This document shows positions 25,685 to 52,513 of a stretch of 64,000 nt of DNA, one piece after another. This stretch comes from an uncultured Actinomycetes bacterium (GTDB lineage Bacteria; Actinomycetota; Thermoleophilia; RBG-16-64-13). The stretch covers positions 640,001 through 704,000 of the forward strand of contig CAVPLM010000005.1 in NCBI GenBank assembly GCA_963706025.1, in the 5' to 3' direction. A model generated the notes under the pieces. It did not search any database and was not told the origin of the DNA. It worked only from the letters and a program-made list of their open reading frames with translations. Position 1 is the first letter of the stretch. Each line of letters starts with the position of its first letter. A program made the position numbers and the translations under genes.

Positions 25685-25736
25685 TGCCGGAGGCGGGACT
25701 CGAACCTGCACGGGCATAGCCCTACGGTGTTTAAGA
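25685..25736 (-). repeat. tRNA-Leu(TAA) 3' fragment, copy L1 (attR-like, distal island end)
   Basis: 52 bp matching 52432-52483 with one substitution; ends at the anticodon loop. Followed by a flank (25737-25857) homologous to 41562-41697. Confidence 0.92.
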
Positions 25737-26710
25737 GATCGGTCCTGAGGTCCGGCGGCGGTTGAGCCTGTTGTCCTGCCAGAATACCGCTCTTGTGATG
25801 GGCTGATCTATCGAGCTCTGGTGGCATCCGGGGAGTTTGTCACCCGGATGTCACCAACGGGGCTGGCAAGTCTGCTCCCGCCTTGCACCCGATCGAGCCG
25901 GCGCCCTATGTACGTGCGTAACCTCTCAGCAGCATCGAGATCGCACCGTCACACTCGACGACGTTATGCAGGCCAGTGAGCACCAAGGAGAAACCGACCT
26001 CATCCGCGGTGGGCCCTTCCGCTGCTCCCGTAAGCAAGGCTGTCATTGGGTCTTTGCCTCTCGCCGTCACCAGCCTCGGAAAAGCTCCCGGAAGACCCGC
26101 GTCTCCCAGGCTGGCTCCCTTGTCACGGTTGGGAATTCGGCTGTGGGAGTCCGGCGTGCCTCGGCTGCGTCGCGCCAGGCCTCGTCGTCGGAGTGGACAT
26201 ACGAACAAAGGAAGTAGTACTACGACTGTAGGCTGGAGACATCCTTCTTGGGGCCGCTTCCTAGAGGCCCGTCGCAACGTTACGGAGCGTGCAAAACGCC
26301 CTCCCGGGCTTGAATCTGTTTTCCCACTGCTCCGTGCGCTCAGCTTCGTAGAGGTCCTGGTCGAAACTCGTGTCGGCGTTGCCCGAAAAGAACCACTGCT
26401 CGAACAGCTTCCGATCGGATGCCAGAACAACTGTGCGAAGCGTCGTGTCTATCAACTGCCGGATCATGGCGGGAACCGAGAAGCCCTCTCTCTGGCTCAG
26501 CGGCGTCCCGGGTCGATCCCACGCGTATGATGTACGCACCCCCGGGCAGGACGGGCACCACAGATCCCTCTTTCACATCTTGCGGGATCGCACTGCCGTC
26601 GTGGGCCGGCCGTCTGCGCTTCAGCTCGGCAATACTGCCCTTGACCTCCTTCGCCTTGTCTTTGTCCATGGTGCGTATCGAAGTCGGGACAACTCCGCGA
26701 ACGTTCTCCC

Positions 26711-27871
26711 TCACGCCCCTGGGCCGCTGAGGACCACTTGCTGCAGTAGTTCGCGTATCCGCTGTCCGATAACGGGGTAGGACAAGCGCTCGACGTAGTC
26801 CCGGCGCGCTCTAAGCGCAAACTCGGCAAAAACTTCCGGGCTCAAAACGATCTGCTCCACTGCGTCCGCGTAGCTCTCCGCGGCGCTGCCCTCCGGGATC
26901 AAAAAGCCCGTGCTGCCTTCTACCACACACGAGGGGGTTCCACCCGTACGTGTCGCCACTGAGGGGACTCCGTAGGCGGACGCTTCGGCCAGACCCAGGC
27001 CCATGCACTCCGCGACGGTTGGGAGTAGGTGCACGTGGCTGCTCAGAAAGAGCGAAGCAAGACGCTCTGTGTCCTTTTCGGATGAGCGGCGGAGAGTCCC
27101 GAGACTTTTCACCCATGGTAGCTGGGCCACGTCCTTTTCGGCAGGACCGCCCACCAGGGTAAGCCGAACAGCATGTCCTCTGTCCCGGAGGATCTGCCCG
27201 ATCTCGATCGCCCGGTCTCCCCCTTTGCGAAACCAATTGCCTCCCATCCACACAAGGCCGATCTCGCTTTGGGTCGATCGCCGGCGTATGGATTCGAGGA
27301 CGGCCGCCGAGGAGGGCAACGCGGGCAGGACTCCACCGAAAGGGATCACCCGGATCTTTTCATCCGGCACCTGGTACAGCCGCCGCGCCTGTTCCGCCGC
27401 CCATTCACTTAAGAAGACGACGGCCGTCGCTCGGTGCAATGCGGATCTCTCGGCCTCGTCGCCTCTGCGCACCGTCCCGGGCGAGAGCCCCGTGAAGTCG
27501 GGGTAGTAACCCACCATGCCGCCGAAGACCGCGTCGGTCCAGGTCACGACGGGAACGTCCAGCCGAGCCAGAGCGATTACAGGGCTCTCAGAGACCAGGA
27601 CCACGTCCGCGTCATGGCGGCGCTGCGCCGCCTCCACTGCCGACGCGTACGCGCGAAGCAGCGGGCGCGCTCTGTCGAAGGCCAGTCGCCGGCCGGTAGC
27701 GAATGACAAAAGCTTTCCCATCAGACGCGCGAGGTCCCGGCGCCGCCGGCAGAGGCCGTCGACGCAGACCACTTCTAGATCAGCCGCTCTCAAGACCAGG
27801 GGCACCGCCCCTTGGCGGCCCTCGGGAGATCCAGAGTCGGCCGAAGCCGTTGTCAGATAGAGGACCCTCAC
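26711..27871 (-). CDS. Glycosyltransferase family 4
   Basis: RKGG and ECMGLGLAEASAYGVPSVATRTGG...TGFL (EX7E motif). Confidence 0.88.
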   Translation of the reverse strand: MRVLYLTTASADSGSPEGRQGAVPLVLRAADLEVVCVDGLCRRRRDLARLMGKLLSFATGRRLAFDRARPLLRAYASAVEAAQRRHDADVVLVSESPVIALARLDVPVVTWTDAVFGGMVGYYPDFTGLSPGTVRRGDEAERSALHRATAVVFLSEWAAEQARRLYQVPDEKIRVIPFGGVLPALPSSAAVLESIRRRSTQSEIGLVWMGGNWFRKGGDRAIEIGQILRDRGHAVRLTLVGGPAEKDVAQLPWVKSLGTLRRSSEKDTERLASLFLSSHVHLLPTVAECMGLGLAEASAYGVPSVATRTGGTPSCVVEGSTGFLIPEGSAAESYADAVEQIVLSPEVFAEFALRARRDYVERLSYPVIGQRIRELLQQVVLSGPGA

Positions 27872-28198
27872 TCCAGTCCTGCCGCGCGATTCAGAAAGAA
27901 ACCCGCCGGTGTCCCAGTATGGCGAATCTTGTGCTGGACCGACACGGCACCTCCTCTCTGCCACCTGCCTCACCTGAGAACATTCTAGCCCGCTCCGGCT
28001 GTGGTGGCCCCACGCCTGGCCCGCCGATGGCGCGCCAGGGAGAGAGGGTTGTCTGCCCCCGGGACTCCGACCCAGGGCGCCGTCCGGCCCAGTAACTCGG
28101 GGGCCGGGTGTTACACTCATCCAGCACGCGCGTCGAGGGTCGGGCGCAGCAGCTCATGGTAGGCCGGCCCGCAGCCTCGGGCCTCAAGAAGGAATCCA

Positions 28199-29443
28199 AT
28201 GAGTGCCATTTCGTTGAGTCGTCCCTCCCGTAGCTACGGCGGCGGAAGTACCTTGGCCACCTGCACGGTCTCGATCCCCGGTAAACCGCCCCGAGAACTG
28301 TGGATCCGAACCAGCGGGGCAGGGCTCGTGGAATCCGCCGATCCGTTCGTGGCGCTCGTTCTGCTGCCGGCGATGGTGCTCGGGGTACCGGTGTCGAGTG
28401 AGGGTCCCGTGTCGCGAACGCTGCTCGAGTCCGGCCTCCCGAGCATCCAAAAGATCTATGCGCTGTGGCGGTACGACAGATGGTATCCCCGATACCGGCG
28501 CTTCCACGAGGTGAAGATCGATGCCCCGGTGGCAGAAGACATCCCGTCGGCCGGAGGTGTGGGCCTGTTCTTCTCGGGCGGCGTCGACTCAAGCTTCAGC
28601 CTCGTCGACGCCCGCGATGAAATCACCCATCTCATCTTCATCCAAGACTGGGAGGGCACATTCCCGACGGACCAAGGGGAGCGAGCACTGTCCGGTGTGA
28701 CGAACGTCGCCCAAGGGTTCGGCAAAGCCGTCATTACGGTGGAGACGAACGCCAAATCGTTCCTCCTCTGGGATTATCTCTCGTGGCTACACTTTCATGG
28801 AGCGTTGCTTGCGGCGGTCGCACTCGAGTTGCAGGGGCGGCTCTCCAAAGTGCACGTGCCGGCGACCTACGACGTCAGCACGCTTCAACCATGGGGATCC
28901 CATCCATACCTCGATCCATTGTGGTCAACGACCGCGACCGAGGTCGTTCATGACCGGATCGACGTCACTCGTCTGCAGAAGCTCGCCGTCATCGCCGATG
29001 ACCGGCTGCTCATGGAGAATCTGCGGGTATGTGGAGAGCCGTATCACAACTGCGGCAGCTGTGAAAAATGCGTGCGTACGATGTTCACACTCCAGGCGCT
29101 CGGCCGCTACGAGCAGGGGCTCCCGTTCGACAGGCCGCCCCTTACCCCTCGGGAAATCGCTCGCCTGAATTGGTCGACCCGGGAGTATCCCGAGTACATT
29201 CAGGAAGTCGTGGACTATCTAAAGGACACCGGAGGTCATCCCGAGCTACTGAAGGCTACGCGGATAGCCCACTCCGGCTTCTACTACCACGGCCCCGGCA
29301 GGCTCATCAGGGGCAATCTTGGCCCGCGTCTGAGAGCCAGAGCCGGGCGAGAGTTGACGCAGCTCGTCGGGTCTGTGCGGAGGACGGCTGGATACCGGCG
29401 GATCGCTGGGCTCAAGCGGAACGGCTTGTCCGAACGCTCTTGA
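28199..29443 (+). CDS. PP-loop (adenine nucleotide alpha-hydrolase-like) protein with Cys cluster
   Basis: FFSGGVDS, WGSHPYLDPLWS and LRVC....NCGSCEKCVRT. Confidence 0.72.
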   Translation: MSAISLSRPSRSYGGGSTLATCTVSIPGKPPRELWIRTSGAGLVESADPFVALVLLPAMVLGVPVSSEGPVSRTLLESGLPSIQKIYALWRYDRWYPRYRRFHEVKIDAPVAEDIPSAGGVGLFFSGGVDSSFSLVDARDEITHLIFIQDWEGTFPTDQGERALSGVTNVAQGFGKAVITVETNAKSFLLWDYLSWLHFHGALLAAVALELQGRLSKVHVPATYDVSTLQPWGSHPYLDPLWSTTATEVVHDRIDVTRLQKLAVIADDRLLMENLRVCGEPYHNCGSCEKCVRTMFTLQALGRYEQGLPFDRPPLTPREIARLNWSTREYPEYIQEVVDYLKDTGGHPELLKATRIAHSGFYYHGPGRLIRGNLGPRLRARAGRELTQLVGSVRRTAGYRRIAGLKRNGLSERS

Positions 29444-30344
29444 CTTCGGGAAGCCGCCAGCGCTGACCGAACCACCTGTCCCCCCCGGACGGATAGCCAT
29501 AGGATGCTGCCGCGGGGGTCGTCGTCAATTCACCGAAATACACGCGGCCGTCCACGCAATAGAGATCTACACGAACGAAATCGAACTCCGCGGAAAGAGC
29601 CCGCGCCACATCAAGCATCTCCCCGAGGCCGGCCGGCGGGGGAATCAGTGGGCCGCAGGGATACGATACACCGTCGAAAGGCAGAAGATTCCAGGAGGGA
29701 TCCAGCCAGGTGGTACGGTACGGTGAGAATCGCTGGTCATTGAAGTTCAGCCCTGCCGGCTCCCCGTCGAAGCAGTAGAACTTGTAGTCATCGGGGAGGT
29801 TCCCATCCACTCCGACAAAACGCTCGACCATGATCCGCCTGGGCACGTGCTTGTACGACCACTCCGAGTTGGCGTGATAGTAGTTTGTTCTCAGCCATCG
29901 GTTGAGCATGCGGCAGAATCCTTCTTGGTCGACCTCTGCCCTGTCCCGGACGACGATGTTCCACTTGCACCCGTGCGTGGCCTTGACCACGTATGGGGGG
30001 GAAAGATCTGCCCAGGGGATGTCCTCGGGCTTTTCGAACACCCCAAGAAGCGGGGCGAGATACTTTTCGCCGGCGCGTGCCGCGACGTAGTCCCTCACCG
30101 CTATCCGGTCGGAGCAGACCTGGAGCAACGGGCGCCGGTCGTAGAGCATGCGCCAGAGGATCTTCTCGTTAAAGCCTTCGGGATGCACGAGATCGGGCAC
30201 TCTCCCGAAGGCCCTTTGCTGCAGGCGCAGGGCGGCCAGGAGCTTCAGCCCGGAATGCCTCCAGGCACGGTACCCCCTCAGAGCGAACGGCAAGAAACGG
30301 GGGGGCAGAGCGTCCCGGACCCTGTGCCTAAGAACTCGTTTCAC
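29412..30344 (-). CDS. TupA-like ATP-grasp amidoligase
   Basis: FNEKILWR, VVKATHGC, DYKFYCFDG and FVRVDLY...YFGELT. Confidence 0.88.
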   Translation of the reverse strand: MKRVLRHRVRDALPPRFLPFALRGYRAWRHSGLKLLAALRLQQRAFGRVPDLVHPEGFNEKILWRMLYDRRPLLQVCSDRIAVRDYVAARAGEKYLAPLLGVFEKPEDIPWADLSPPYVVKATHGCKWNIVVRDRAEVDQEGFCRMLNRWLRTNYYHANSEWSYKHVPRRIMVERFVGVDGNLPDDYKFYCFDGEPAGLNFNDQRFSPYRTTWLDPSWNLLPFDGVSYPCGPLIPPPAGLGEMLDVARALSAEFDFVRVDLYCVDGRVYFGELTTTPAAASYGYPSGGDRWFGQRWRLPEVKSVRTSRSA

Positions 30345-31224
30345 TTCGCCGCCACTCGGGGAGTCGAGCAAGCCGTGGCGGGCTCTCCCGCGCGCGCATA
30401 TATGCTTCCGCCCAGGTCCGGGACGCGACCGGGCCATCCGGTGGCTCACACGCACCCAGCATGAACCTGCCGCAGTGCGCACAGAAGATCTGCGACTCCG
30501 CTTTCATGTCGTCCTGTTCCTGGGGAAGGACCTTTCTCCCCAGATCGAAGCCGAAGATCCGGTCGATCGAGCCGGCTACCGGGCAAGGATAGTAGCCGTA
30601 GGGAGTCACTCCCAGGCCACACTCCTGAGTCTCCCAGCAGCCGTTGGAGAAGTCGGCTCCCCTGTACTCCGGCACGTCGATCGGAGCTACCTGGTAGGTA
30701 TGGAACGAAGGTTGGACCCGGCCGCTCTTGGCAGAATCGCGTACCCGTACACCGGGAGGCAGCCGCGCGACCATCGTTCTCGCCCGCTCGCTGTAACCGT
30801 TGGTGACGACCCCGACCCTGGTCTCGGAGGAGTACTCGTCGCGGTACCGGACTACCAGGTCGACGATTTCCAGGAACTCCGGGTGACACGTCGGTTCTCC
30901 CCCTCCGACCACGAGTTGCTTCCATCGGATCTGGTGCTCTCTGCTATCTTCCAAGAACTGCCGGACTTGTCCGACAGACATGTGATCGCCAGTGGGATGC
31001 TGCGCGCAGGAGCGATTGCAGTTGTGACAACCCAGGTCACATTCGTATGTGATGTCGATCACGGCAGCGTCCCGGCTTCGGTTCCATTTGGGGCCGAGCA
31101 TTCGGGTGGGCCCGGGCGAGAGCCGCCACAGGTCGTAACGCCGACCGACTCGGTGCAAGGCCGTGTGGACCCTCGGCGGCACGTGGGGCTTGATGCTCGT
31201 CTTGTAGATGGCACGGAGACTCAC
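30328..31224 (-). CDS. Radical SAM protein
   Basis: CDLGCHNC, GGEPT and TNG. Confidence 0.88.
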   Translation of the reverse strand: MSLRAIYKTSIKPHVPPRVHTALHRVGRRYDLWRLSPGPTRMLGPKWNRSRDAAVIDITYECDLGCHNCNRSCAQHPTGDHMSVGQVRQFLEDSREHQIRWKQLVVGGGEPTCHPEFLEIVDLVVRYRDEYSSETRVGVVTNGYSERARTMVARLPPGVRVRDSAKSGRVQPSFHTYQVAPIDVPEYRGADFSNGCWETQECGLGVTPYGYYPCPVAGSIDRIFGFDLGRKVLPQEQDDMKAESQIFCAHCGRFMLGACEPPDGPVASRTWAEAYMRARESPPRLARLPEWRRSETSS

Positions 31225-31281
31225 TGCTGGTCCACCCCCGGCGCAGAGCCGATCAGAACATGGTCGGGCGCAACGGCGACT

Positions 31282-32889
31282 CTAGGACCCCGATAGGACC
31301 TCGCCGATGGGTCGTCCGTCCAGTTCGTCGCAGCTCAACCCGAACCATTCAAGGAAGGTGGCGGCGAAATCCATGACGGACACCGTTCGGGCCACGGTTC
31401 CAGGCTGCAGTCCCGGCCCGACCACCGCGAACAGACCATCCGGTCTGTGATCACCGGTCCGGCAATAGCGATATTCTCCCTCCACCACGCCGATCTTACC
31501 CGAAGCGGCCCGCACCCGATAGGACAGATCGCTGCTCACCGCCTTGCTGCCCATGCGTACCTCCTGATTCCACTCGACCAGGAGATCCGGCAGATGCTCG
31601 AGGCGCTCCCCTCGGTAGAGGTCAGAGGTCTTCATGACCTTCTTCACCAGGGGCCGGCCACCGGCAACCTCGGTGACGGCCAGCAGGTCTTCGCTCAGCC
31701 GACGGCAGAGGTCATCGAACTCCGCGCCCGGCTCGATAATGCCTTGTGGTTCTCTACCCGCGAGGTTGACGCGGATGCCGCTGATCAGGTCTCCGTTGTC
31801 CTGAGGAAAACAAGCGCACTTCGCCAGGTCCAATCGGTCGGAGAGCCGGCGCGGGCCCGTGGTCTCCGGGTCTCGGGCCCAGCCGAGCATCGGTGACACG
31901 ACCGGCCTCAGGGAGCGCTGGACCGGCTTCGGCAACCTGCTCCATCCCCGCGCCCCGGTGCGGAAGAGCCTCCGGGGCATCGGCTCCGGGTGACCGGCAC
32001 CGGGCGGTCTCCGGACCAGACCGAGCCTCTCCAGGATCTCTTCGAGCATGAAGCCTTTGCCCACGCTGTCCTTCATGCCGTGCGTGGCGAGGAAGAACAC
32101 GTAGCTGTCCTGGTCGACCTGAGCGAGGATCTCTCCGATGGCACGATCGATGGCCACATAGATCTCTCGGATCGGGTCACCCGTGCGCGCGACCGTATGT
32201 CGACGGTAGTTCGGATGAGCCGGGTCATGGAGATGCCAGCATTGATGACCGGCGCAGTGGCCTTCGGTGAATACCTGGACAAAGAAATCCCAGTCATCCT
32301 GCTCGAGATAGTGCAGCGTCAGTTCGCACTTCTTACTGACCCCCGCGATGAGTTCATCGCGGAATCGGCGGAAATCCTTCACGCTCCTACCCGGGGAGTC
32401 GCAGCACTCTCCGGCTGGATGCCGTCCGAACCGCCGTATCACATCCGCCTCTAGTTCCTGAGGCCATGCCCGAAAGCCGTACACGGCGTCATGGGACCCC
32501 CATTCGACGGTCTGGATCCCGTTCACGTCCTTCGAGATCCCCGACAAGGGGACGTCCAGGATGGCGACCTTCTTCCCGGCTCTGCTGAGATGGTTCCAGA
32601 ATGGTTCCTGGTTGATGAACTCACCAGGGCTGCACCGATCGAACTCGTACGTTCCCGGTCTGAGCTGGATCATGCGATGAAAGCCGTGTCGCGCCGGATT
32701 GACGCCGGTGTAGAAGCACGGCCAGGTCGATCCCTCGTACAGACCGTCGACGCTCGTGGTATCTCCCACGAGACCCCGGGAAAAGAGCGCGCGCAAGGCC
32801 GGCAACGTGCCATCCGCAGCCCATTCTCTGAGCAGATGCTTGTCTCCCGCGTCCATCGCCAGGAGTACGATTCTTCTCGGACGAGTCAA
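31282..32889 (-). CDS. Alkaline phosphatase superfamily (type I phosphodiesterase/NPP-like) protein
   Basis: MDAG, W..FYTGVNPARHG, THG, NLAGREPQG and GDHRPDG. Confidence 0.82.
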   Translation of the reverse strand: MTRPRRIVLLAMDAGDKHLLREWAADGTLPALRALFSRGLVGDTTSVDGLYEGSTWPCFYTGVNPARHGFHRMIQLRPGTYEFDRCSPGEFINQEPFWNHLSRAGKKVAILDVPLSGISKDVNGIQTVEWGSHDAVYGFRAWPQELEADVIRRFGRHPAGECCDSPGRSVKDFRRFRDELIAGVSKKCELTLHYLEQDDWDFFVQVFTEGHCAGHQCWHLHDPAHPNYRRHTVARTGDPIREIYVAIDRAIGEILAQVDQDSYVFFLATHGMKDSVGKGFMLEEILERLGLVRRPPGAGHPEPMPRRLFRTGARGWSRLPKPVQRSLRPVVSPMLGWARDPETTGPRRLSDRLDLAKCACFPQDNGDLISGIRVNLAGREPQGIIEPGAEFDDLCRRLSEDLLAVTEVAGGRPLVKKVMKTSDLYRGERLEHLPDLLVEWNQEVRMGSKAVSSDLSYRVRAASGKIGVVEGEYRYCRTGDHRPDGLFAVVGPGLQPGTVARTVSVMDFAATFLEWFGLSCDELDGRPIGEVLSGS

Positions 32890-32911
32890 CTCGGCACGAC
32901 CTCACAGACCT

Positions 32912-34100
32912 TCAGAAACTGTGCATCCAACTGCATCTCTGACAGCCGGGGAACGACCCGCATCGGCGGACGGCCGCGCGGAAGCGCTCGGCCTTCACGT
33001 TGGTCCAGATGTCCTCGAGCCGGTCCTCCCTGATGTTCCCGAGCACGTAGTCGTCGATCCACTCGTCCGGACAGAATCTCACATCGCCGTTGGGTTTGAT
33101 GACGGCCACGCGGAGCGAGGCTCGACACCGTTTGTTCGCCCGGTAGCCCTCGGAGTAGTACTCGCGTATCTCGCCGCCCTGGAGATCTGGGAAGAAGGTC
33201 ACCCCCCTCGTGCCTCTCAGCTGAGAGAGTTCCTCCGACAGCGCCGCCAGATCGATCGACTCGACCGAGGGAAGATGGTGAGCACGCGCTCCTGGAGCGG
33301 ATAGGCCGAGCGCCTTCCCCACCGCGTCCTGGTGGGCCTGCAGTTCCGCGGGGGTGATGAACCACAGGTGGTGGATCACGAATTCGTCGACGCCATCCGC
33401 CGTCTCACTTCTGATGGATCCAACGGTCTCCCGCAGGCGACCGACGACCGAGGGGCCTATGGTCACGTTGACGGTGATGACGGGCTTCGCGCCGCCGCAT
33501 GCTGCCCGTACTCGCAGGACCTCGTTGAGGTTCTCCACCACCCGTGCGTAGACACCCGGTCCACGCAGAGCATCATGGACATCGGGAGGCCCATCCAGCG
33601 AGATGTTCAGATTGTCGACGCCCAGCCTCACAGCCGTGCTGATCAGCTCGGTGTCGAGAAGGGTCCCGTTGGTCGTGAGCGACATCGGCAGCCCGTGCCG
33701 CTTGACGCACGCCGCTATCGTTCCGAGATCGTCCCTGATCAGCGGCTCCCCTCCACCCAGGTAGATGTTGGGACGATACGCCGCCAATCGCTCGATGAGG
33801 CCCAGGACCTCGTCCGTCGTCAGCTCGGACGTGCCATAGCGATCGCCGACACCGTTCGTCCCGTGAAACCAACACATGTCGCAGCGCAGGTTGCACCGGT
33901 TGGTCAACTCGATGTCGATGAAGGCGGGCAACCCGCCAGGCCTGTGGGGCCGGCGAAGCCCCGGTGGTACCAGCCATCGCGGCACCAGAAGCCCAAGGCG
34001 CCTTCTCCAGGGGGCACGAGCCGTGTCAGGCATCGGCCGGACGGTAAGGCGGTCCACCAAGTATCGTTTCGTCGATAAGCCGATAGATGGTCTCATCGAC
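32912..34100 (-). CDS. Radical SAM protein with SPASM/Twitch domain
   Basis: CNLRCDMC, GGEPL, SLDG and C-terminal C...GDVRFC...LGNI...CQRC. Start uncertain. Confidence 0.88.
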
Positions 34101-34958: not shown

Positions 34959-35360
34959 CCGGAGAAAAACCCCTCTCGCCGGCGGAGTGCGTCCCGCTGC
35001 GCCTCGGCCGGATCGCCCTGCCTGCCTCCACATACCGAGACCCGAGTGGGTTCGTTGTCTGCGTACGATCTGAGCGCTGCTCCACAGGCCAGCCTAGACC
35101 GGATGGACGCGCAAAGCAAACCCTCTCGGCGAAGCCGGAGGCCCGCACGGCCAAGAACAAGAAGCGCACTTGAGTTGAACCCCTGGCACTGTTCAGCGAG
35201 GGGGCTCCTCCTGTTCGGCCAGCATCATGTCCTCTTTCGTGGACCAAGCAAAGGCGCTCAGCGCGAAGTACCTCGGGGCGTAATAGGGCTGGCTTAGTTC
35301 CCAGGCTGCTCGTGCGTTTGTCTTGGAGCGTATTGTTGGTCGCTGCGGTAGAATTATGTC

Positions 35361-35548: not shown

Positions 35549-35740
35549 TTCGGCACCTGGCTGCTTTTTGTTTCTGTACGGCCTCCCTTTGGGTCTTCGG
35601 TCGATTGGAGACACTCAGGCCGCGGACTGCTGTTCTGTCCCAGATCGGTCAGAAGCGGGGGAGGTGCTGCTGTTTGATCAACTGCTCTCTGAGTTTCACA
35701 AGCGCCAGCGCAAGAAGAAAGAAGAGAAAAGAGGATCGAC

Positions 35741-43060: not shown

Positions 43061-43099
43061 GGGCGGCGATGGACGCGATCGCCTGCACGAACGCGGGGC

Positions 43100-44687
43100 T
43101 CACGAGCTGACCCGAGTTCCACCGTGGCCTGCCGCAGCAGCTTGGTGCCTGCCTCGCCTAGGATCTTGGGAGCCTTCGAGTTCACGTTCGTCTTCATCTC
43201 TTCGATGACCTTGGTCTCGGCCTCCAGGAATGCGGCCAAGTGCTTGTACGCGTCCTCGGAGCCGGCAGGGGCCTTCATCCCGGCGGCGCGTTCTGTGGCC
43301 GCCTCAATGGTCGTCTGCCGCCCAGGCGAAGTCGTCCTTGTCGGTCTGCGACCAGTCCGGGTAGCGCAAGACGCGTGGAGGAGATCTTGGCGTGGGCCGG
43401 GCTGAGGTTCCTCGACCATCATGACGTCCAGCTCGGTCTTGGTGGCCGGGACGGTGGTGGTCGTCGTAGAGGACGCGACAGAGCGTCGGGCCTGTTGTGC
43501 CGGCCGGCTGGAGCTCGGTCCAGGTGTTGGCGGCAGGGTCGTAGGCCCAGGTATCGTCGAGGTACGGCGGCGTCCGGCGTTCCCGAGGGACAGGATCATC
43601 CTCTTGCCGTCCGGATCGTAGACCATCGCAGCAGCCGAACCGCGCGGAAGGCAGGCTGCCGGCAGGCTTGAGCTCCGTCCAGCTGTTGGCGGCCAGGATC
43701 GTAGGCCCAGGTATCGTTGAGATAGGCGCTCATTGGATCTTCCGGAGCCCCCGTGATGCCTCCAAAGAGAAACATCCTGCCGCTTGCTGGATCGTACGCC
43801 GCGCAGTTTGCGACACGCGCAAGAGGGCCCGCTGCCCGCAGGAGGGAGTTCGGTCCAGGTGTTGGCGGCAGGGTCGTAGGCCCAGGTGTCGTCGTAGGAC
43901 TCGCCCGTACCTCCGACCCTCCAAAGAGAATCATCTGGCCAGTGGCCGGATCGTAGACCATGGGAGTGGCCGTTGCGCGCGGACGGCACGCTGCCGGCGG
44001 GCTTGAGTTCGGTCCAGGTGTTGGCGGCGGGGTCGTAGGCCCAGGTGTCGTTGACGCTGGTGCTCGTGATCGGCGTCCGAGCGCCTCCGAAGAGGATCAC
44101 CTTGTCGGTGCCCGGGTCGTAGACCATGGCGTGGGCAACGCGCGCAGACGGCAGCGCTGCCGGCGGGCTTGAGCTCCGTCCAGGTATTGGCGGCAGGGTC
44201 GTAGGCCCAGGTGTCGTTGAAGTAGGTGCGGGGATCGAAAATGTCTGCAGCCCCTCCGAACATGAGCATCCTACCGATCGGCGACGTCGTAGACCATGCG
44301 AGGAAAGGCGCGGTGCCGAGGGCACGGTCCCGGTAGGATCGAGTTTGGTCCAGCTGCAGGCGGCAGGGTCGTAGGCCCAGGTGTTGTCTTTCGCACCGCG
44401 AGGAGTCCATTGGCCTCCGAAGAGGATTACCTTTGCGCTGGCCGGGTCGTACACCATGGCAGAGGGCCATCGCGATGGCAGGAGGCGGCGGCCGCGGTGG
44501 TCAACCGTGTGGCCGTGGTCACCGGCTTGGGTCGTGGATGGTCACGGGGCTCAGCTGAGTGGTGGTCACGGCCTGGGTGGTGGTTGTCTCTTCGCCGCCA
44601 CAGGCTGACGCAACGAGTGTGATGGCGAGCAGCACGAATAGAGTGAGAGCGACCAGAAGCACAAGGAGCGGTCTTCTCGGCTTTCAT
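43100..44687 (-). CDS. Kelch-repeat lipoprotein (multiple frameshifts)
   Basis: About six repeats of MVYDP....ILFGG....NDTWAYDPAANTWTEL.P.G; lipoprotein signal ASACGG after indel correction. End approximate. Confidence 0.8.
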
Positions 44688-45445: not shown

Positions 45446-45537
45446 TCGAACGAATCTCGATAAGACGGGGTTGCAGGGGACGACCATTCTGCTGCGTAGC
45501 ACGTTTGCGTCCGTCCCAAGTCCCGTTGACTGCTGTC

Positions 45538-45691
<154 letters not shown>

Positions 45692-45981
45692 GGCTCTCGT
45701 CGTAGGTCCGGTGCGGGGTATCGAGTGTGCATAGATACCGTTCTGTGCGGCGGGAATACCGCTTTGGTGGTGTCCTGTCCGGTGAGCACCGGGGAGTCTG
45801 CCACCAAGATGGCACCAAGATCGGGCGGCAGGGCTCATACGAGGGGAATGGCGGCATAGAGCGGGTAGTGGATGCCAATGGCACTGAACTGGGCCCGGCG
45901 GAGGAAATGTGTGCCCACGAACAAATGGCAGCTGGCCGAGCTCCGGCCACTGGGTCGGACGAGACCGTATGTATGGGATGG

Positions 45982-46653
45982 CTAACGCCAGTTGATGCGC
46001 ACCTGCTTAGACCAGGGGACGATCAGCCAAATCAGGACCGGGGTATCGTCTTCCTTGATATTGAAGCGAACAATCCCGCGCGCGCTCTGCCCCGAAGACA
46101 GCGTTCCACTCCCCAGATCCGATAGTCCAACTCCTGACGGTTCTGTGCTTACGCCTGTCCCCCCACTGCTGCTCGCCTCCAAACTGAAGTCGTCGGGCGA
46201 ATAGGAGATGGCGGTTTCGCCTGCGTTTACGATGGTTACCATGCTGTAGACGACGGCAGATCCCGGGTGTGGTGACTGCGCATCAGAATCGATCACCGGG
46301 GCCTCCACGGTTACAGTTCCACCCCCCACGGTTGTAGTCTCACCCCACTTCAATTCTTCCGTCTGGAGAGTCGTCACCGCGCCTGTTTCCGAGGAGGGTG
46401 TCGAAACTGTCGTCTGCGCCTGACCAGAGGTCGTGGATACCTCAGTCTGCGTAGCTGTGGTTACCGTCAACTCGACACTCGAAGTCGACGCCTGCCCGGA
46501 GTCCTGCGTTGTGCCGCAACCCCACGTGGCTAGCCCAGCCATAAGAAGCACGACCGAACATGTTGCAGCGACTCTGGTTCTGAGGGGTTGCCGGGCTGGC
46601 CTCGTCGTCATTTCGGCCCTACGAGGAAGGCCCTCAGAAGTGTCGATACGCAA
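45982..46653 (-). CDS. Lipoprotein with DUF4352-like Ig-fold domain
   Basis: Lipobox-like TWGC, S/T-rich linker, VTIVNAG...YSPDDFSL...GTLSSGQSARGIVRF. Confidence 0.68.
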   Translation of the reverse strand: MRIDTSEGLPRRAEMTTRPARQPLRTRVAATCSVVLLMAGLATWGCGTTQDSGQASTSSVELTVTTATQTEVSTTSGQAQTTVSTPSSETGAVTTLQTEELKWGETTTVGGGTVTVEAPVIDSDAQSPHPGSAVVYSMVTIVNAGETAISYSPDDFSLEASSSGGTGVSTEPSGVGLSDLGSGTLSSGQSARGIVRFNIKEDDTPVLIWLIVPWSKQVRINWR

Positions 46654-47140
46654 GTCTGCCTCCTCTTGTCTTCAAGCCATGTCAGCGGCCGCGAGAAACG
46701 CCAGAAGGTCTTGGCATCAAGACCTTCTGGCAACGATCTGCCGACGTCTTGCTCATCAGACTCCCTGATTGATGCCCTAGCACCTGATGCCGCCCACCCG
46801 TATGGCAGCGTTGTCGTCTGGGCGCTCAGTATACGGTGTGGACGTGGAAGCTAGCATCGACCGTGTGCCAACGAACACCCGGGTCTATATCGTGGGTAAA
46901 TGAAGCAATCCCGTGGCCATCGCCGTAGCCACGAGCACGAATATTGGTGAAGATATGATCTCCCGTACCCTGCTGCACGAAACCGAATCGGCCGGTAGCA
47001 GGAACATTCGCGGCTGGGACGCCGCCGATAGTACAGGTCGGCCCCGAGTACGTATGCCAGACACCCCCCGTTCCAAACGGGTCGTTATAGACACTCATGC
47101 CGGCCCAGTAGTTAGCGGCGGTCACGTAGCCTCCCGAGTT

Positions 47141-47221
<81 letters not shown>

Positions 47222-47244: not shown

Positions 47245-47820
47245 ATGCAGGTGAAGCAGCCACAACTCGAAACGCGTCGCTGCATTCTTCGAGATGCGGA
47301 CGCCAACGATCTCGATGTCGTGGTCTCCGCCGTGAGCTCACCGTTGTTCCCTCAGCGGCTTCCGCTGGCCGAGATGGAGAAGTCCGGGCAACTCTTGCAC
47401 TGGCTTGAGCAAATGTCCTCCCGCTCAGCCAGCGGGTCGGCATTCTGCTGGTCCATCGATCTGAAAGAAGCCACGCGCTGCATCGGCCAGGTTTCTCTTT
47501 CGGCAAGGCGTGACTCGACCGCCTGGAACATCGCATTCTGGCTGCACCCGCTCTACTGGGGCCGTGGTCTTGCCCTCGAGACGGTATCGAGTGTGATTGA
47601 GGTCGCCTTTCAGTCGTTAGATATTCCAGAGCTGTGGGCGGGTGTTGCGCTCTGGAATGATCGGTCCATCGCCACGCTGGAACGCCTCGGCTTCCATTTC
47701 AGTGGAGATAGTCCTGCCGGCTACTTCCTGGGCGGCATTGCCGAGCCGGTTCACGAATATCGACTAACACGACAACACTGGCAAGACCAGCGATCTTCCA
47801 CATCAGACACGTCGAGGTGA
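47245..47820 (+). CDS. GNAT acetyltransferase (RimJ/RimL-like)
   Basis: LETRRCILR, IAFWLHP.YWGRGLALE and NDRSIATLERLGF. Confidence 0.85.
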   Translation: MQVKQPQLETRRCILRDADANDLDVVVSAVSSPLFPQRLPLAEMEKSGQLLHWLEQMSSRSASGSAFCWSIDLKEATRCIGQVSLSARRDSTAWNIAFWLHPLYWGRGLALETVSSVIEVAFQSLDIPELWAGVALWNDRSIATLERLGFHFSGDSPAGYFLGGIAEPVHEYRLTRQHWQDQRSSTSDTSR

Positions 47821-47986
47821 GGGGAATCCTCGAAAGAGGTATTTGAAGCAGAAACCCTGACTAGTGCGGGGAGGCCGACGCGTGGAGGATCGGCGACCTC
47901 GTGACCGGCACTCCCGCATGAGTGCGGTGGCGGCGCCCTGGTGCATCCGGTGTCGCCTCGTACGCCCAGGCATATTCTGTGGTGTC

Positions 47987-48115
<129 letters not shown>

Positions 48116-48124
48116 GATACACAC

Positions 48125-49277
48125 GGTCGTCGACCCTACCGGCCCTGCCAGATCACCTTGCCGGTCTATCGAGGTAGGTCGGCGAGATGGAGCCGTCGGC
48201 GGTCATGGGATCGAAGCGAGCGAGACCGCCCGGAGAACGGATAGATAGCCTGGGCTTCACGCTCCATGGGGATGACGAAGGCGCCGGTCTTGTCGATGTA
48301 GCCAAAGAGACCGGAGTTCGTCCCCACCGCCGCCAGCCCTTCGGAGAACTCCGCGGCCCACTCGAACTGCGGCTTGATGACCACTGTCCCCGTCTTGTCA
48401 ATGTAGCCATATCTGCGGCATCGTCTTGCACAGACCGCCACCACCGCCAGACCCTCGGAGAAGGGATCGGCCCCGTCGAACTGCGGTTCGATGACAAAGG
48501 CCCCGGTCTTGTCGATGTAGCCCCATCTTGCGGCATCGTTGTTTGCCGGGAACCCCACCGCCGCCAGTCCTTCGGAGAAGCCCCGAATCGCAATCGAACT
48601 GCGGCTCGATGAGCCATGGCGCCGGTCATGTCCATGTAGCCCCACTTCACGGCATCGTTTTCCCCGAACCCCACCGCCGCCAGCCCTTCGGAGAAGCTCG
48701 TAGACCACTCGAACGGCCCGATCACCACGGTGCCCGTCTTGTCGATGTACTCGTTTTGCAGCTTGCCGCCCTTCAGCCGTTCATCGACCGTCACCGCACA
48801 CAGACCTTCCGAGAACGCACCGGGGCTGCTCGTACTGCGTCGGGATGACGACGGTGCCGGTCTTGTCGATGAAGCCCCAGAGATAGTTGTCGCCGACCAC
48901 CGCCGCCAGCCCCTCTGAGAAGGGATTGGCGATGTCGAACTGCGGCTCGATGACCATGGTGCCGGTCATATCGATGTAGCCGAACTTCTCCCCAACGGAT
49001 ACAGGAGCGAGGCCCTCAGAGAATTGGGAATAGGGCCAGTCGACGAACTGGGGCGGGATGACCATCTCGCCCTGCGCTGTTGATGTACCCCAGCTTGCCG
49101 TCGACCACGACGGGGTACAGTTGCGCGGTCTCGGTGGCGAGTGAGGTCTCGGTGCTGACGGCTGTCTCGGTGGTGATAGTGGTTTCAGCGGTGACTGCCG
49201 AGCCGCACCCCGCTACGACGAGAAGGCAGGTGCAAGAGAAGAGCAATCGTAACGGCCATCAGTCTGGGCACGGTCAT
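48125..49277 (-). CDS. WG-repeat lipoprotein (multiple frameshifts)
   Basis: Lipobox VAGC; repeated FSEGLAAV....WGYIDKTG..VIEPQF. Confidence 0.83.
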
Positions 49278-49454
49278 GGATTCCCCCATGGTTCGCGTGC
49301 GCGACGGCTTCATGATAAGGCATTAGCCGTGAAGGATGCGAAGCTCCCAGCGGCCGAGCTTGATACCGCAGAGACATCCCGCGGACACCAACAGGGGATC
49401 AGGTCGCTATATCGTTCAGTTTTGCCCCGTCCGTTTCGTCCGTTGGTTGCCGTT

Positions 49455-49593
49455 GAGTTTGCCACCGACTTGCCCCCGAACTCGCCCGAAAGACGCGAAA
49501 ACCCGGTCTCGTCGACCGGGTCGACGCTGCCGTTCTTGGCCTTCTGAAGCGGAGAGGGGGGATTCGAACCCCCGGTACCGCTTGCGCGGCACA
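49455..49593 (-). repeat. tRNA-Ser 3' fragment (49549-49593) + conserved flank, unit S4
   Basis: About 45 bp tRNA match plus the full flank. Confidence 0.9.
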
Positions 49594-49752: not shown

Positions 49753-50898
49753 TCACTCAAGTGGAATACGTGCCTCGGCCCACCAAGCGGGCGGAGTCGG
49801 CAGCACGGGAACGAAGGCCACGCGCTGTTCCCCCGGAATCGGGGGCAGCTGGTCCATGACCTGAGCCTGACGCGCGACTACGGCTTCCTTGGTCACATTG
49901 AACACCGTCAGGTCCTGAGTTTGGACAACGGGACCGCCATAGACGGTGCCGAGCTCGGCGAAGATCATCTGAATGACCTGGGGCGAAAGCAGGGTGTGCC
50001 ACAGGCCCGCCACGCGCGGCTTCACCAGGCTGAACACCTTGCCTGCAGCCGTCGGCGAGGTGTGCGCGGCGTTAAGCGCTATCGTCGCGCGCTCGATCGA
50101 GAGACCCGAAGCGGCCGCGAGAGCCGCGGCAGGCGGGAAACACTCGTGGATGAGCAGGTCGAGGCCACCCTCGTTGGCGCGCACCAGCGGCCAAGCCGCG
50201 CACGTGTCGCCCGAGTAGGAAAACGACAGCCCCGCGAAGTCGACTCGGTAGCCGACGGCGCCGCTCAGAGAGTGGACGACCGGAAAGGACGTCACTCTGA
50301 CGCCGTTCTCCTCGTACACGACCCCGGTCTGGCTCCAGTCGAATTCGTGCGCCACGATCCTCATGCTGTCCTCGTTGATCGGGCCGCGCCCCGCTTCACT
50401 GTCCCAGGCGAGCGCCATCTCGATTCCCTGGCAGAAGTGCCGGGTGCCGAGACGAGGCTCGGTGCCGCTGGGACCCCACACCTTGACCGGGCCGTCCGCC
50501 CGTCCCACCTTCGCGTAGCTTCCGGAGAGCGTGAGTAGATCGGCGGTATGGTCGGCGTGAAGGTGGGTCAAGAAGACCTTATCGAGCTTGTTGACCGGCA
50601 ACTTCAGGCTCGCGTAGTTGGCGAGGGAACCGCTTCCCAGATCGAAGACGAGCACGTCCCTCTCCGGATTCCCGACCTCGACCAGGATGCTCGCCGAGGC
50701 CTGGGCGCGCGTCACCCACGGATTGCCACTGCCGAGCACCGTCACGCGCAGCTCGCCATCCTCCAGCGGCTCATCACCGGGGACGAACGTCTCGGCGTAC
50801 TCTCGTCGCGGCGCACCGACGATCGGCGTTGTGGTGATGGCCTTCGTCCCACCGGCGAACGTCGGCGGGGGTAGAGGCATTGAATCGCTACTTGTCAT
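49753..50898 (-). CDS. Metallo-beta-lactamase-fold hydrolase (RNase Z/AtsA-like)
   Basis: LGSG.P, FDLGSG, FLTHLHADH, YSGDT, LLIHEC and AHT. Confidence 0.88.
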   Translation of the reverse strand: MTSSDSMPLPPPTFAGGTKAITTTPIVGAPRREYAETFVPGDEPLEDGELRVTVLGSGNPWVTRAQASASILVEVGNPERDVLVFDLGSGSLANYASLKLPVNKLDKVFLTHLHADHTADLLTLSGSYAKVGRADGPVKVWGPSGTEPRLGTRHFCQGIEMALAWDSEAGRGPINEDSMRIVAHEFDWSQTGVVYEENGVRVTSFPVVHSLSGAVGYRVDFAGLSFSYSGDTCAAWPLVRANEGGLDLLIHECFPPAAALAAASGLSIERATIALNAAHTSPTAAGKVFSLVKPRVAGLWHTLLSPQVIQMIFAELGTVYGGPVVQTQDLTVFNVTKEAVVARQAQVMDQLPPIPGEQRVAFVPVLPTPPAWWAEARIPLE

Positions 50899-51035
50899 CT
50901 CGGATTCCTCCCGCTTCAGAGTGCCAGCTCAACTCAATCTAACACGAAAGGCCTAATGTGAACGCGGGCTCAGCCGGTCTGTCATCTGGTGCCGTCGCTT
51001 CTGTCCTGGTCCGTTTTCGGCTGTTTTCGGCTGTT

Positions 51036-51181
<146 letters not shown>

Positions 51182-51273
51182 GTCGTGATCCTCCGGCGCC
51201 GTGAGCTTGCCGGGCCCAATACATTGAACTACCCTGGAGAGGACCGGACCGAAGCAACTCTGGGATAGAGCCC

Positions 51274-52254
51274 ATGAAAGCGATCGTCTTCACCAGATAC
51301 GGAACACCCGATGATCTCGAGCTACGGGAGGTAGACAAACCCGTTCCCAGGGACGATGAGGTTCTGGTGCGAGTCCACGCGGTAGCCATAAACGATTGGG
51401 ACTGGGGGATCCTCCAAGGTATTCCGTTCTTGAACCGCCTGAGATTCGGTCTTCGCAGACCGAAGAAACAGATACTCGGCTCCGACATAGCCGGGCGGAT
51501 CGAAGCAGTCGGCAAGAACGTGGAGCGGTTTCAGCCGGGGGATGAGGTCTTCGGGGATTTAAGCGGCCACTGGGGCGGTTTCGCTGAGTATGTCTGCGCT
51601 CCTCAAAAGGCCTTGGCTCCGAAACCGAGGGGCATGACCTTCGAGGAAGCCGCCGCGATACCTCAGGCGGCACAGCTGGCTGTGCAGAGCCTTCGCGACA
51701 AAGGGCGGATCCAACAAGGACAGAAGCTTCTCATCAATGGGGCGGGCGGGGGCGTAGGTACCTTTGCTATCCAGATCGCGAGATCATATGGGGTTGAAGC
51801 AACTGGCGTAGACAGCTCGGGGAAACTGGACATGCTGCGCGCGATGGGCTTCGACCATGTCCTTGACTATACACAAGAGGATTTCACCAAGAAGGGGCGG
51901 CACTACGATCTGATCCTTGATGTCAAGACAAATCGGTCAATACTCGATTACCTGCGCGTATTGAGTGCTAGTGGCGTCTACGTCACGGTCGGGGGCTCCA
52001 CGGCTCGGGTTACTCAAGCCTTGCTGCTGGGACCGTTGATCTCGCTGGTGAGTAAGAAGCGAGTACGCATTGTTCCCCTGAAGCCGAACAAGGACTTGAG
52101 CTACATGACTGAGCTCTTCGAAGCCGGCACGGTCAAACCGGTGATAGATGGTCGTTACAGGCTGAGTGAAGTCGCTGAAGCCATGCGGTACTTCGGGCAA
52201 GGTAACCACAAGGGCAAGATCGTCATAACTGTGGAAGACGACAATACGGCCTAG
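51274..52254 (+). CDS. NAD(P)-dependent alcohol dehydrogenase / quinone reductase (MDR family)
   Basis: MKAIV...YG.PD.L, LGSDIAG, INGAGGGVGTFAIQIA and GKIVI. Confidence 0.9.
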   Translation: MKAIVFTRYGTPDDLELREVDKPVPRDDEVLVRVHAVAINDWDWGILQGIPFLNRLRFGLRRPKKQILGSDIAGRIEAVGKNVERFQPGDEVFGDLSGHWGGFAEYVCAPQKALAPKPRGMTFEEAAAIPQAAQLAVQSLRDKGRIQQGQKLLINGAGGGVGTFAIQIARSYGVEATGVDSSGKLDMLRAMGFDHVLDYTQEDFTKKGRHYDLILDVKTNRSILDYLRVLSASGVYVTVGGSTARVTQALLLGPLISLVSKKRVRIVPLKPNKDLSYMTELFEAGTVKPVIDGRYRLSEVAEAMRYFGQGNHKGKIVITVEDDNTA

Positions 52255-52431
52255 CGAGACGCCAGCGCCGTGGTTTCGGCTCAGGGTGTCTTCCGGTGCG
52301 TTCCAGTCCATCACAGTCCGTTAGCGGGTGCCAAGTTCGTCACCAGGATGTCACCAAGCGGCCCCTAGAGACGCCAAAACCGGCCTCGCTGACCGGGCTT
52401 CAGAGCAAGAATTACCTGCAAATCACACCAA

Positions 52432-52513
52432 TGCCGGAGGCGGGACTCGAACCCGCACGGGCATAGCCCTACGGTGTTTAAGACCGTTGCGTCTGCCATT
52501 CCGCCACTCCGGC
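52432..52513 (-). tRNA. tRNA-Leu(TAA)
   Basis: Complete cloverleaf GCCGGAG-TGGCGGAATGGCAGACGC-A-ACGGT-CTTAAAC-ACCGT-variable arm-GCGGGTTCGAGTCCCGC-CTCCGGC-A. CCA not encoded. Confidence 0.96.

Follow-up and report, generated by a model that had tools for sequence, protein, structure and literature searches.

The 64,000-nucleotide stretch of DNA analysed here (hereafter the window; bases 640001-704000 of a 1.2-Mb contig from an uncultured actinobacterium of the class Thermoleophilia) contains an island behind a tRNA-Leu(TAA) gene, in which nine displaced tRNA 3' ends separate blocks of unrelated genes. We consider it probable that this island results from serial accretion of elements moved by tyrosine integrases and from their decay, and that most of the small blocks are devoid of an integrase and resemble cis-mobilizable elements (CIMEs). 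The genome under study, termed G000, is a metagenome-assembled genome (MAG) of 3.66 Mb in 30 contigs with 92% completeness and 7.3% contamination; a conserved protein assigns it to uncultured, Gaiellales-like Actinomycetota of the Thermoleophilia. Every genome compared to it is likewise a MAG, with G002 belonging to the same genus and G007 to the same family, and the basis of the work is sequence comparison throughout.

Results

Displaced tRNA ends behind tRNA-Leu

A previous inspection of the sequence, referred to below as the sequence-only reading, had described nine co-oriented tRNA 3' fragments, four of Leu and five of Ser type, downstream of the intact tRNA-Leu. BLAST searches recovered all nine (L1-L4 and S1-S5 in Table 1) on the minus strand, as the tRNA-Leu itself, which is the sole tRNA of the region well supported by both ARAGORN and Rfam. 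The 25-nt Leu core and the 24-nt Ser core had five matches each in the window, compared to 0.00 expected from 100 shuffles. The fragment coordinates delimit blocks of 0.86, 1.25, 1.4, 1.46, 1.5, 1.5, 2.0, 4.07 and 12.2 kb, in agreement with the earlier estimate of about 0.9-4 kb plus one block of 12 kb. The region thus displays the signature of a tDNA island, an intact tRNA gene with (here four) co-oriented displaced 3' fragments of it. An integrase gene per island was not found; two of the nine blocks contain a 137-aa integrase fragment and a 17-codon stump, respectively.

The 26.7-kb stretch 25684-52430 is an insertion and is absent from the same site in two relatives. Both G002 and G007 have kept the flanks and one intact tRNA-Leu, the homologues of the left flank follow after 3-5 kb, compared to about 28 kb in G000, and no Leu fragment was found at this site in either genome, showing that the array is not fixed. 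A sequence related to the arm at 52287-52430 lies behind both the tRNA-Leu and the tRNA-Ser of G007; since it persists behind the tRNA-Leu, this site may hold an old remnant. The respective contigs of G001 and G003 stop at tRNA-Leu. The G+C content is 62.4% in the island, 67.4% in the flank on the tRNA side and 64.0% in the genome, and the neighbours on the tRNA side are housekeeping genes (ppx, DUF501, DivIC and enolase). The Ppx/GppA gene beside tRNA-Leu is read as two open reading frames (ORFs) on the minus strand, 52570-52884 and 52976-53620, matching profile positions 189-279 and 1-159, which is due to a frameshift, a pseudogene or an assembly indel. A 94-nt tRNA-Pro(AGG) called by ARAGORN at 39718-39811 (+) is probably false, as the Rfam tRNA model did not match there even at E<=0.1.

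The Ser unit and its arm

Intact tRNA-Ser genes are missing from the window; those for tRNA-Ser(CGA) are located on contigs C7 and C8. Each Ser unit comprises about 170 nt, consisting of a T-arm core, a hairpin and then GGNGGCAA repeats. The tRNA fragment is followed by about 140 conserved nucleotides, starting with the spacer GAAAGCCAAGAA and a GC-rich hairpin with TTTT and continuing past the hairpin with the repeats CGCGTCTTTCGGGCGAGTTC-GGGGGCAA-N3-GGKGGCAAAC and ACGGAC. The arm of tRNA-Leu has the same layout, with GGTGAC-N5-GGTGAC in place of these repeats, and GACTGCCGCACG repeats directly follow L2 and L3. Judged by their helical spacing beside the core, we read the 8-12-bp direct repeats as putative arm-type sites of an integrase. 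The earlier proposal that the blocks are bounded by tRNA repeats of attachment (att) type is supported by these Ser units with core and arm. The left border of tRNA identity in the fragments varies between 33 and 58 nt, and nearly all of 42 units aligned from five genomes retain GGTACCGGGGG-TTCGAAT-CCCCCCC, i.e. both halves of the T-arm. Decay is visible in S4, which has lost most of its arm.

On the other side of the core, the repeat motifs of the P' side recur in the P arms before S5, L1 and L4. The Ser-type P arm before S5 also matches sequences in G007, on locus L060 of G001 and at the attR of an element in G072. Chimeric units with a Ser(CGA) core and a Leu-type (GGTGAC) arm were observed at C8:130376-130544 of G000 and behind a tRNA-Ser of G007 (L056:13589-13760); the two specificities have therefore swapped cores and arms. 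The idea that arm-only copies are preceded by fragments of other tRNAs was dropped, as a comparison to the 53 tRNAs of G000 yielded only the tRNA-Leu arm of the window. The unit hairpin was also rejected as a terminator: 93% of it is paired in the 42 units, but its covariation was reached by 55-57 of 500 shuffles. It has four T rather than five of eight and was therefore missed by a consensus terminator scan; terminator-like may serve as a description of its layout. Rfam searches (E<=0.1) of the window and two array loci found no family for the unit arm or for the mini insert and the leader described below; the only matches were tRNAs, an antisense plastid psbI-rps4 match overlapping trnS and one riboswitch.

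Arrays of Ser units in the lineage

About 30 copies of the Ser unit are present in G000, behind both tRNA-Ser(CGA) genes (C7 and C8) and tRNA-Ser(TGA) (C10), in the tRNA-Leu island, and on C3, C11 and C18. A search by nhmmer with a unit profile in G000 and ten loci of four relatives gave 113 matches, 83 of them with core. The arrays are co-oriented, with a median core-to-core spacing of 2.9 kb (68 spacings; interquartile range 1.6-4.4 kb). The array on contig C6 of G001 has 30 units in 79 kb, the one on C6 of G007 has 14 units in 28 kb and ends at an intact tRNA-Ser, and further arrays are found on G003:C8 and G011:C1. Among the matches listed, at least 11 of the 24 family relatives showed one extending into the arm; the 16 genomes from other families showed none. 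The exact arm motif was found in 52 stretches of 23 assemblies of a species-representative contig collection; these assemblies are MAGs of Actinomycetota/Thermoleophilia type or unassigned bins, except for one 2.3-kb contig binned as Burkholderiales. The arm motif had no match in viral contigs and the unit none in phage and plasmid collections. A literature search not covering the tandem examples of the tycheposon preprint discussed below retrieved no description of Gaiellales-type islands or of integron-like arrays of tRNA att sites.

Regarding the assembly, the two tRNA-Ser(CGA) loci on C7 and C8 of G000 have identical tRNAs with flanks of only 73% identity, and the tRNA-Ser(GCT)/tRNA-Arg pair at the start of C22 is duplicated on C8. 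Because of these duplicated loci, the diverged flanks and the 7.3% contamination, C7 and C22 may stem from a second organism or strain.

Most blocks are free of integration genes

We surveyed nine arrays from five genomes, comprising 71 blocks delimited by successive Ser units with a core, for traces of the integrase gene (int) or of orf79, its partner gene described below (E<=1e-4). Such a trace was detected in five blocks, an intact int in none, and 66 blocks were free of any trace. The window blocks between S1 and S5 are bounded on both sides by att repeats of the same specificity, each with core and arm, and contain no recombinase family or other integration, excision or transfer genes, as expected for CIMEs. 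Pfam families were assigned to 17 of the 30 island ORFs, one of them being the integrase C-terminal fragment, and no transposase, replication, conjugation or virion family was among them, as the sequence-only reading had claimed; neither was any primase or helicase family, so that the blocks do not qualify as tycheposons. PHROG searches with ten unexplained ORFs identified the integrase fragment only. No match to the resolvase family of serine recombinases (PF00239) was obtained in G000 or in the arrays of G001, G003, G007 and G011, and no PF00589 match in the arrays of G007, G003 and G011.

Remnants in the window and autonomous relatives

PF00589 (tyrosine integrase) has eight matches in G000 and a single one in the window, the fragment at 37452-37865, in line with the earlier statement that an intact integrase is missing. 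That statement had overlooked this fragment, the 17-codon remnant at 41889-41939 and the intact orf79 at 42015-42254. The fragment is 47-57% identical to array-associated integrases. The order in the window is L1, Leu-type P arm, about 160 nt, 17 integrase codons, orf79. In related elements, orf79 always lies behind the cognate integrase (homologues in loci L089, L091, L152 and L057); stretch 41898-42240 is 76.5% identical at the DNA level to orf79 plus the 3' end of int in G072. Two of the four Leu-bounded blocks, one of 10.9 kb between tRNA-Leu and L1 and one of 12.2 kb between L3 and L4, thus appear to be eroded autonomous elements, since integrase remnants and orf79 lie inside. The product of orf79 matches no Pfam or PHROG family. 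Its AlphaFold2 model has a mean confidence (pLDDT) of 78.5 and a beta-alpha-beta-alpha-beta-beta fold, for which Foldseek returned weak rows only, the best being an Smr domain (E 0.02, TM-score 0.57), and the likeness to Smr/Alba-type proteins is weak. Orf79 could conceivably act as a directionality factor.

The window fragment belongs to one integrase family, which was followed with a profile and tblastn over about 700 kb of array-associated loci and then in 61 genomes of the bacterial family. Its members have SAM-like and catalytic domains and about 380 aa, with orf79 behind. G000 has stumps on C18 and C10, the copy in the first block of the G001 array is interrupted by one in-frame TGA, the copy on L089 is cut by the contig end, and several shorter pieces occur in these loci. 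Intact frames of 384 and 387 aa with 65-66% identity were found in G076 and G072, and more distant intact integrases (about 40-50% identical) in many of the 61 genomes. The check for a cognate integrase, as proposed in the sequence-only reading, accordingly found intact genes on elements with the same arms in other genera of the family and none in G000.

The element of G072 comprises 18.8 kb, with int and orf79 inside. At one end an intact tRNA-Ser(CGA) borders on the same P' arm, and the far end consists of a P arm and a Ser fragment of 56 nt (about 58 nt), giving a classical pair of attL and attR. Block 1 of the G001 array is a 9.1-kb relative with the same ends, int and orf79. Autonomous relatives with a cognate integrase and the same att sites thus exist in G072 and G001. 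In G076, a 1.1-kb single-gene block sits between tRNA-Ser and an integrase-bearing element, which is the place where a later arrival is expected.

Two other recombinases were noted. A short Xer-like tyrosine recombinase of about 200 aa (202 aa) is encoded within the integrase-bearing tRNA-Ser elements, at L057:6412-7020 of G001 and L152:15023-15535 of G072; the 90.6% protein identity between two genera suggests recent transfer of this element. It was considered as recombinase of the cassettes and rejected, as G000 has no close copy and the best matches are Xer-like genes with 35% identity. Contig C3 of G000 carries a 225-aa tyrosine recombinase ORF lacking the N-terminal part (C3:452263-452940; L124:8263-8940, +). 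Its insertion (..LDRKHPNA..WRRQWVFP..) resembles what we take, by eye, to be the insertion specific to integron integrases (IntI).

Exchange of blocks and a cargo-less insert

The WG-repeat cassette (48082-49408) is 84.7% identical to G003:C8:66-1390 by blastn and has different neighbour blocks there; the homology begins at the end of the unit arm and ends at the 3' end of the next fragment. Similarly, C7 and C8 share three blocks in another order with 77.5, 81 and 95% identity. Comparing cassette content and order had been suggested in the sequence-only reading, and cassette-sized pieces are indeed common to genomes with different neighbours.

Four units of G000 contain a non-coding mini insert of about 190 nt between 18-nt core repeats (CGAATCCCCCCCTCTCCG). 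One of them resides in the intact tRNA-Ser of C8, and three copies are 97-100% identical. Of 60 other family genomes, 25 contain related inserts, frequently located immediately after tRNA-Ser. The insert is too small to encode its own recombinase, and its borders locate the crossover to the T-loop/acceptor portion of the core. Its interpretation as signal recognition particle RNA or another RNA gene beside tRNA-Ser was abandoned, as there was no Rfam support.

Cargo of the blocks

The features of the island are listed in Table 1. The main cargo genes from the tRNA-Leu side onwards (alcohol dehydrogenase, metallo-beta-lactamase fold, WG, GNAT, DUF4352, Kelch) are encoded on strands +, -, -, +, - and -, with promoter-like sites inside the blocks. 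By its predicted content, the 12-kb block combines a putative gene cluster of the cell-envelope glycan type with an operon led by a riboswitch. This riboswitch (35461-35547, +; 62.4 bits compared to a gathering threshold of 59) lies upstream of ORF 35741-36385, which is weakly camelysin-like, and ORF 36437-37336, which is similar to S24/S26 signal peptidases.

A conserved leader of about 190 nt occurs three times on the minus strand of the window (45286-45445, 44694-44853 and 39070-39229), four times elsewhere in G000 (C8:8533-8746, C11:72340-72516, C11:94838-95009 and C5:588657-588883) and in G001 (L057:13990-14205). It consists of a promoter-like sequence TTGAC(G/T)-16-TATACT (10 of 12 matches), then two or three predicted hairpins showing a few compensatory changes, and a GAGGAGG ribosome site, followed by the starts of different genes, whose predicted N-termini look by eye like signal peptides. 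Without an Rfam match, it is a candidate for a new cis-regulatory RNA.

Table 1 Features of the tRNA-Leu island, ordered from the tRNA gene to the far end.
Feature	Position	Strand	Basis
Intact tRNA-Leu(TAA), island anchor (attL side)	52431..52514	-	ARAGORN; Rfam tRNA 61.2 bits
Leu-type P' arm: spacer, hairpin with TTTT, GGTGAC-N5-GGTGAC repeats	52287..52430	-	Weak match to positions 56-173 of the unit hidden Markov model (HMM)
Zn-dependent alcohol dehydrogenase-like gene, block from tRNA-Leu to S1	51274..52254	+	Pfam ADH_N/ADH_zinc_N_2
Ser unit S1: 51-nt tRNA-Ser(CGA) 3' fragment (51131-51181) and conserved P' arm	51000..51181	-	BLAST, unit HMM
Metallo-beta-lactamase-fold protein	49753..50898	-	Pfam Lactamase_B_2
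Ser unit S2: 38-nt fragment (49556-49593) and P' arm	49411..49593	-	BLAST, unit HMM
WG-repeat protein, read as two ORFs	48153..49065	-	Pfam WG_beta_rep
Ser unit S3: 34-nt fragment (48082-48115) and full P' arm	47944..48115	-	BLAST, unit HMM
GNAT acetyltransferase	47245..47820	+	Pfam Acetyltransf_3
Ser unit S4: 43-nt fragment (47179-47221, 95%), arm cut off after about 40 nt	47140..47221	-	BLAST, unit HMM
DUF4352 protein	45982..46653	-	Pfam
Ser-type P arm, GGTGCC/GGTGGCA repeats; attR side of autonomous-type Ser element	45692..45860	-	92-93% identical to G001 L057:8945-9069
Ser unit S5: 58-nt fragment (45634-45691) from anticodon loop and P' arm	45497..45691	-	BLAST, unit HMM
Kelch-repeat protein, block after S5	42937..44457	-	Pfam Kelch families
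orf79, intact 79-aa gene, integrase partner	42015..42254	+	tblastn 76-89% to genes beside int in L089, L091, L152
Integrase C-terminus remnant, 17 codons (..VAKIDAALG..stop), rest deleted	41889..41939	+	Translation compared to integrase ends
Leu-type P arm, GGTGAC repeats, repeat families D18/D19	41562..41730	-	Beside L1
Leu fragment L1, 53 nt, 100%, from anticodon loop	41509..41561	-	BLAST of tRNA-Leu against whole genome
379-aa protein, family not assigned	40201..41340	+	Weak DUF3466 match; no PHROG
Leu fragment L2, short, T-arm only; 26 nt exact (40016-40041), 37 nt at 89%	40016..40052	-	BLAST
Leu fragment L3, 52 nt, 100%	37953..38004	-	BLAST
Integrase C-terminal fragment, catalytic HxxR..Y region only, abuts L3	37452..37865	+	PF00589 positions 108-165; PHROG integrase
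12-kb block: c-di-GMP-I-GGC riboswitch, camelysin-like protein, S24/S26 peptidase-like protein	35461..37336	+	Rfam, Pfam
12-kb block: GT4 glycosyltransferase, TupA-like ATP-grasp, two radical SAM (one SPASM), phosphodiesterase, GT14 Branch enzyme	26711..35033	-	Pfam
Leu-type P arm of oldest block	25737..25905	-	85% identical over 88 nt to arm at 41611-41697
Leu fragment L4, 53 nt, 98% (1 mismatch), far end of island	25684..25736	-	BLAST

Discussion

According to the model that we favour, one family of elements would insert serially into the T-loop region of tRNA-Leu(TAA) by means of a lambda-type tyrosine integrase. Each incoming element would supply a substitute 3' end along with a hairpin and arm of its own, so that every insertion restores the tRNA and displaces the former 3' fragment with its P' arm outward, the newest block being the one nearest to the tRNA. 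Relatives specific for tRNA-Ser(CGA) would insert at a Ser-type core inside the newest Leu element and build up a nested Ser array with no tRNA-Ser; such growth inside a Leu element is conceivable because any core can be a target, as the mini inserts in orphan units show. The integrase genes would be lost fast by deletion while the cargo genes between the cores persist, blocks could be inserted, excised or carried along by the integrase of a related resident or transient element, and recombination between any two cores would reshuffle or delete blocks.

The sequence-only reading had regarded all blocks as minimal non-autonomous cassettes and had named eroded integrase-bearing islands as the finding that would speak against this. 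Both descriptions hold in part: most blocks are without integrase, whereas two of the four Leu-bounded blocks look like eroded autonomous elements, and traces of int or orf79 persist in 5 of the 71 Ser-bounded blocks. We infer that the small Ser-bounded, mostly single-gene blocks are att-flanked modules without integrase, the mobility of which would be provided in trans. It is more likely that they arrived without integrase, either in trans or by accretion in cis with a helper, than that they are extreme stumps. Probably, therefore, the array is a mix of fossils and passively mobilisable cassettes that is not self-sufficient in G000. A stronger version is possible but rather doubtful, in which the unit of about 170 nt would serve a lineage-wide cassette system of Gaiellales-like Thermoleophilia as its dedicated site of recombination, with single-gene and cargo-less cassettes moved in trans by a rare Int-Orf79 pair.

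Several observations weigh against the favoured model. No intact cognate integrase was found in the 92% complete G000, and G003, which is 96% complete, has only two PF00589 matches genome-wide, both probably Xer-like as judged from size and score. Conservation on the P side was seen in the window only before S5, L1 and L4 and at a few sites in the relatives. The chief objection to an independent integration of the blocks is that most of them lack a P arm: lambda-type integrases usually require arm sites on both sides of attP, and one-armed cassettes may therefore not integrate alone. The entry of the first Ser core into a Leu element is left unexplained by the model, and gene conversion, instead of an integrase, could account for the spread of the four mini inserts. 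Erosion is evident from the 30 of 113 unit matches without core, from the stumps of int and orf79 scattered in the arrays, and from the WG cargo gene being split into two ORFs. Finally, no excision or circle junction was found in contigs from public reads, which were too fragmentary: no run contained more than 0.18 of the sampled words, and the contigs of four runs (90% likeness) were short, with a depth peak at the units and few joints, the sides of which were shorter than 30 nt or lay in repeats.

These signs of decay lead to the most serious alternative, namely that every block is the stump of its own autonomous integrase-bearing element and none was ever mobilised without its own integrase. 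The integrase stumps in two of four Leu-bounded and the int/orf79 stumps in five of 71 Ser-bounded blocks, further short int pieces in the array loci, the lost cores and the size of the autonomous relatives (9-19 kb, far larger than the blocks) would all be explained in this way. We nevertheless judge pure erosion unlikely. The main argument is that 66 of 71 blocks have no trace of the 1.15-kb integrase gene, yet have kept an open cargo gene, both half-sites and the full P' arm, whereas partial stumps and damaged cores should be more frequent after random deletion. Moreover, the insert of about 190 nt was always too short to accommodate an integrase, and the homology of the WG cassette common to G003 ends at the unit borders.

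Alternatively, the units could be portable homology, blocks being exchanged by RecA-type crossovers after DNA uptake, with no site-specific recombinase involved once the first elements had arrived. At about 170 nt and 80-90% likeness the units are sufficiently long and similar, arrays are retained by genomes that lack a cognate integrase, and the chimeric Ser-core/Leu-arm units (C8:130376 and behind the tRNA-Ser of G007) fit such exchange. This explanation appears improbable, as the mini insert is bounded by an 18-nt repeat only, positioned exactly in the T-loop/acceptor region, the fragments have a sharp left border with nearly all retaining at least GGTACCGGGGG, the left half-site, and the autonomous relatives show the classical attL/attR layout.

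An action of the host recombinases XerC/XerD on the units, as in pdif-type modules or integrative mobile elements exploiting Xer (IMEX), would account for the arrays of G003, where the two Xer-like genes are the only PF00589 matches; it is very improbable, since the core looks by inspection like a tRNA T-arm and not like dif, the direct repeats formed by the units carry arm repeats on one side, as is typical for lambda-type integrases, and the same arms are physically linked to a dedicated family of integrases. Equally remote is a mis-joining of repeats from several strains or organisms in the metagenome bin, to which the 7.3% contamination, the diverged C7/C8 flanks and the broken contigs of G001 and G003 could point: the island lies inside a 1.2-Mb contig, the units differ by 10-20% and are therefore not collapsible repeats, and similar arrays are found inside the 3.56-Mb contig of G007 and other large contigs.

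The idea of integrase-less, att-flanked modules in tandem is not new and was proposed earlier for streptococcal CIMEs and for the ssrA islands of Dehalococcoides. The CIMEs and the ICESt-type tandem accretion of Streptococcus, reportedly described by Pavlovic and colleagues in 2004, are said to be att-flanked modules without integrase or transfer genes, two or three in number, next to which a related element can integrate and carry them along, an integrative and conjugative element being needed. Conjugation genes are absent here among the ORFs scanned.

The ssrA islands are the closest described case. They are tandem, bounded by 3' repeats of a small-RNA gene, inserted at the T-loop and variable between strains; 16 have an integration module and 15 have none, the latter being proposed to be cis-mobilizable elements moved by accretion or now fixed (McMurdie et al. 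2011, PMC3146451). They employ a serine integrase (DsiB) and a 20-bp ssrA repeat and are multi-gene, whereas the array reported here goes with a tyrosine integrase, tRNA-Leu and tRNA-Ser targets, fragments of 33-58 nt with an arm of about 140 nt, smaller blocks (median spacing 2.9 kb), up to 30 units in 79 kb and a Ser array nested in a Leu island. The tRNA-anchored islands of Prochlorococcus contain side-by-side elements split only by partial tRNAs, newer elements pushing older ones inward, along with fragmented integrases and extra partial tRNAs, according to the preprint (Hackl et al., bioRxiv 10.1101/2020.12.28.424599). The tycheposons defined therein have their own integrase and replication modules, while most blocks here have neither.

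Islander relies on an intact tDNA with a co-oriented displaced 3' fragment, distinguishes a T-stem/T-loop crossover class and demands that every island carry an integrase ORF and be no shorter than 2 kb; its survey of 2168 genomes yielded 125 tandems with two or more islands and only four with three or more (Hudson et al. 2015, PMC4383910). Because of these two demands, most blocks described here would fail its filters.

The likeness to integrons emphasised by the sequence-only reading is restricted to function: ordered, co-oriented recombination sites, mostly single-gene cargo of unrelated kinds and no recombinase in the cassettes. Membership fails on all three defining features tested, as no IntI lies beside the array, where ppx, DUF501, DivIC and enolase are found at its head and an IntI-like truncated ORF is on another contig; the sites are tRNA-derived direct repeats with a one-sided arm, with no attI and no attC-type inverted repeats; and the cargo is encoded in both orientations, apparently with its own promoters. 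What sets the arrays apart from the known systems is the combination of a tyrosine integrase and tRNA targets, the long one-sided arm, the many small blocks, the nested specificities and the cargo-less mini insert.

It is common to treat tandem islands at tRNA genes as a few large elements with an integrase each. The arrays described here suggest that the same process has gone further in these uncultured soil and sediment actinobacteria, leading to long arrays of small, mostly single-gene blocks, nearly none with a recombinase, and tools that demand an integrase per island would miss nearly all such blocks. Should the blocks be fossils, the order and pace of earlier insertions can still be read from the arrays. 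If a shared integrase moves them, they would represent a second route to an integron-like platform for gene capture, would explain the turnover of flexible genes in a lineage with few other recognisable mobile elements, and, with their Ser and Leu cores and at least three arm types, would offer short orthogonal att sites of natural origin along with the cognate integrases. Should even the dedicated cassette system prove true, these bacteria would possess tRNA-anchored arrays of 10-30 cassettes, nesting also in islands at other tRNAs, and thereby a functional analogue of the integron made from one-armed, tRNA-derived att sites.

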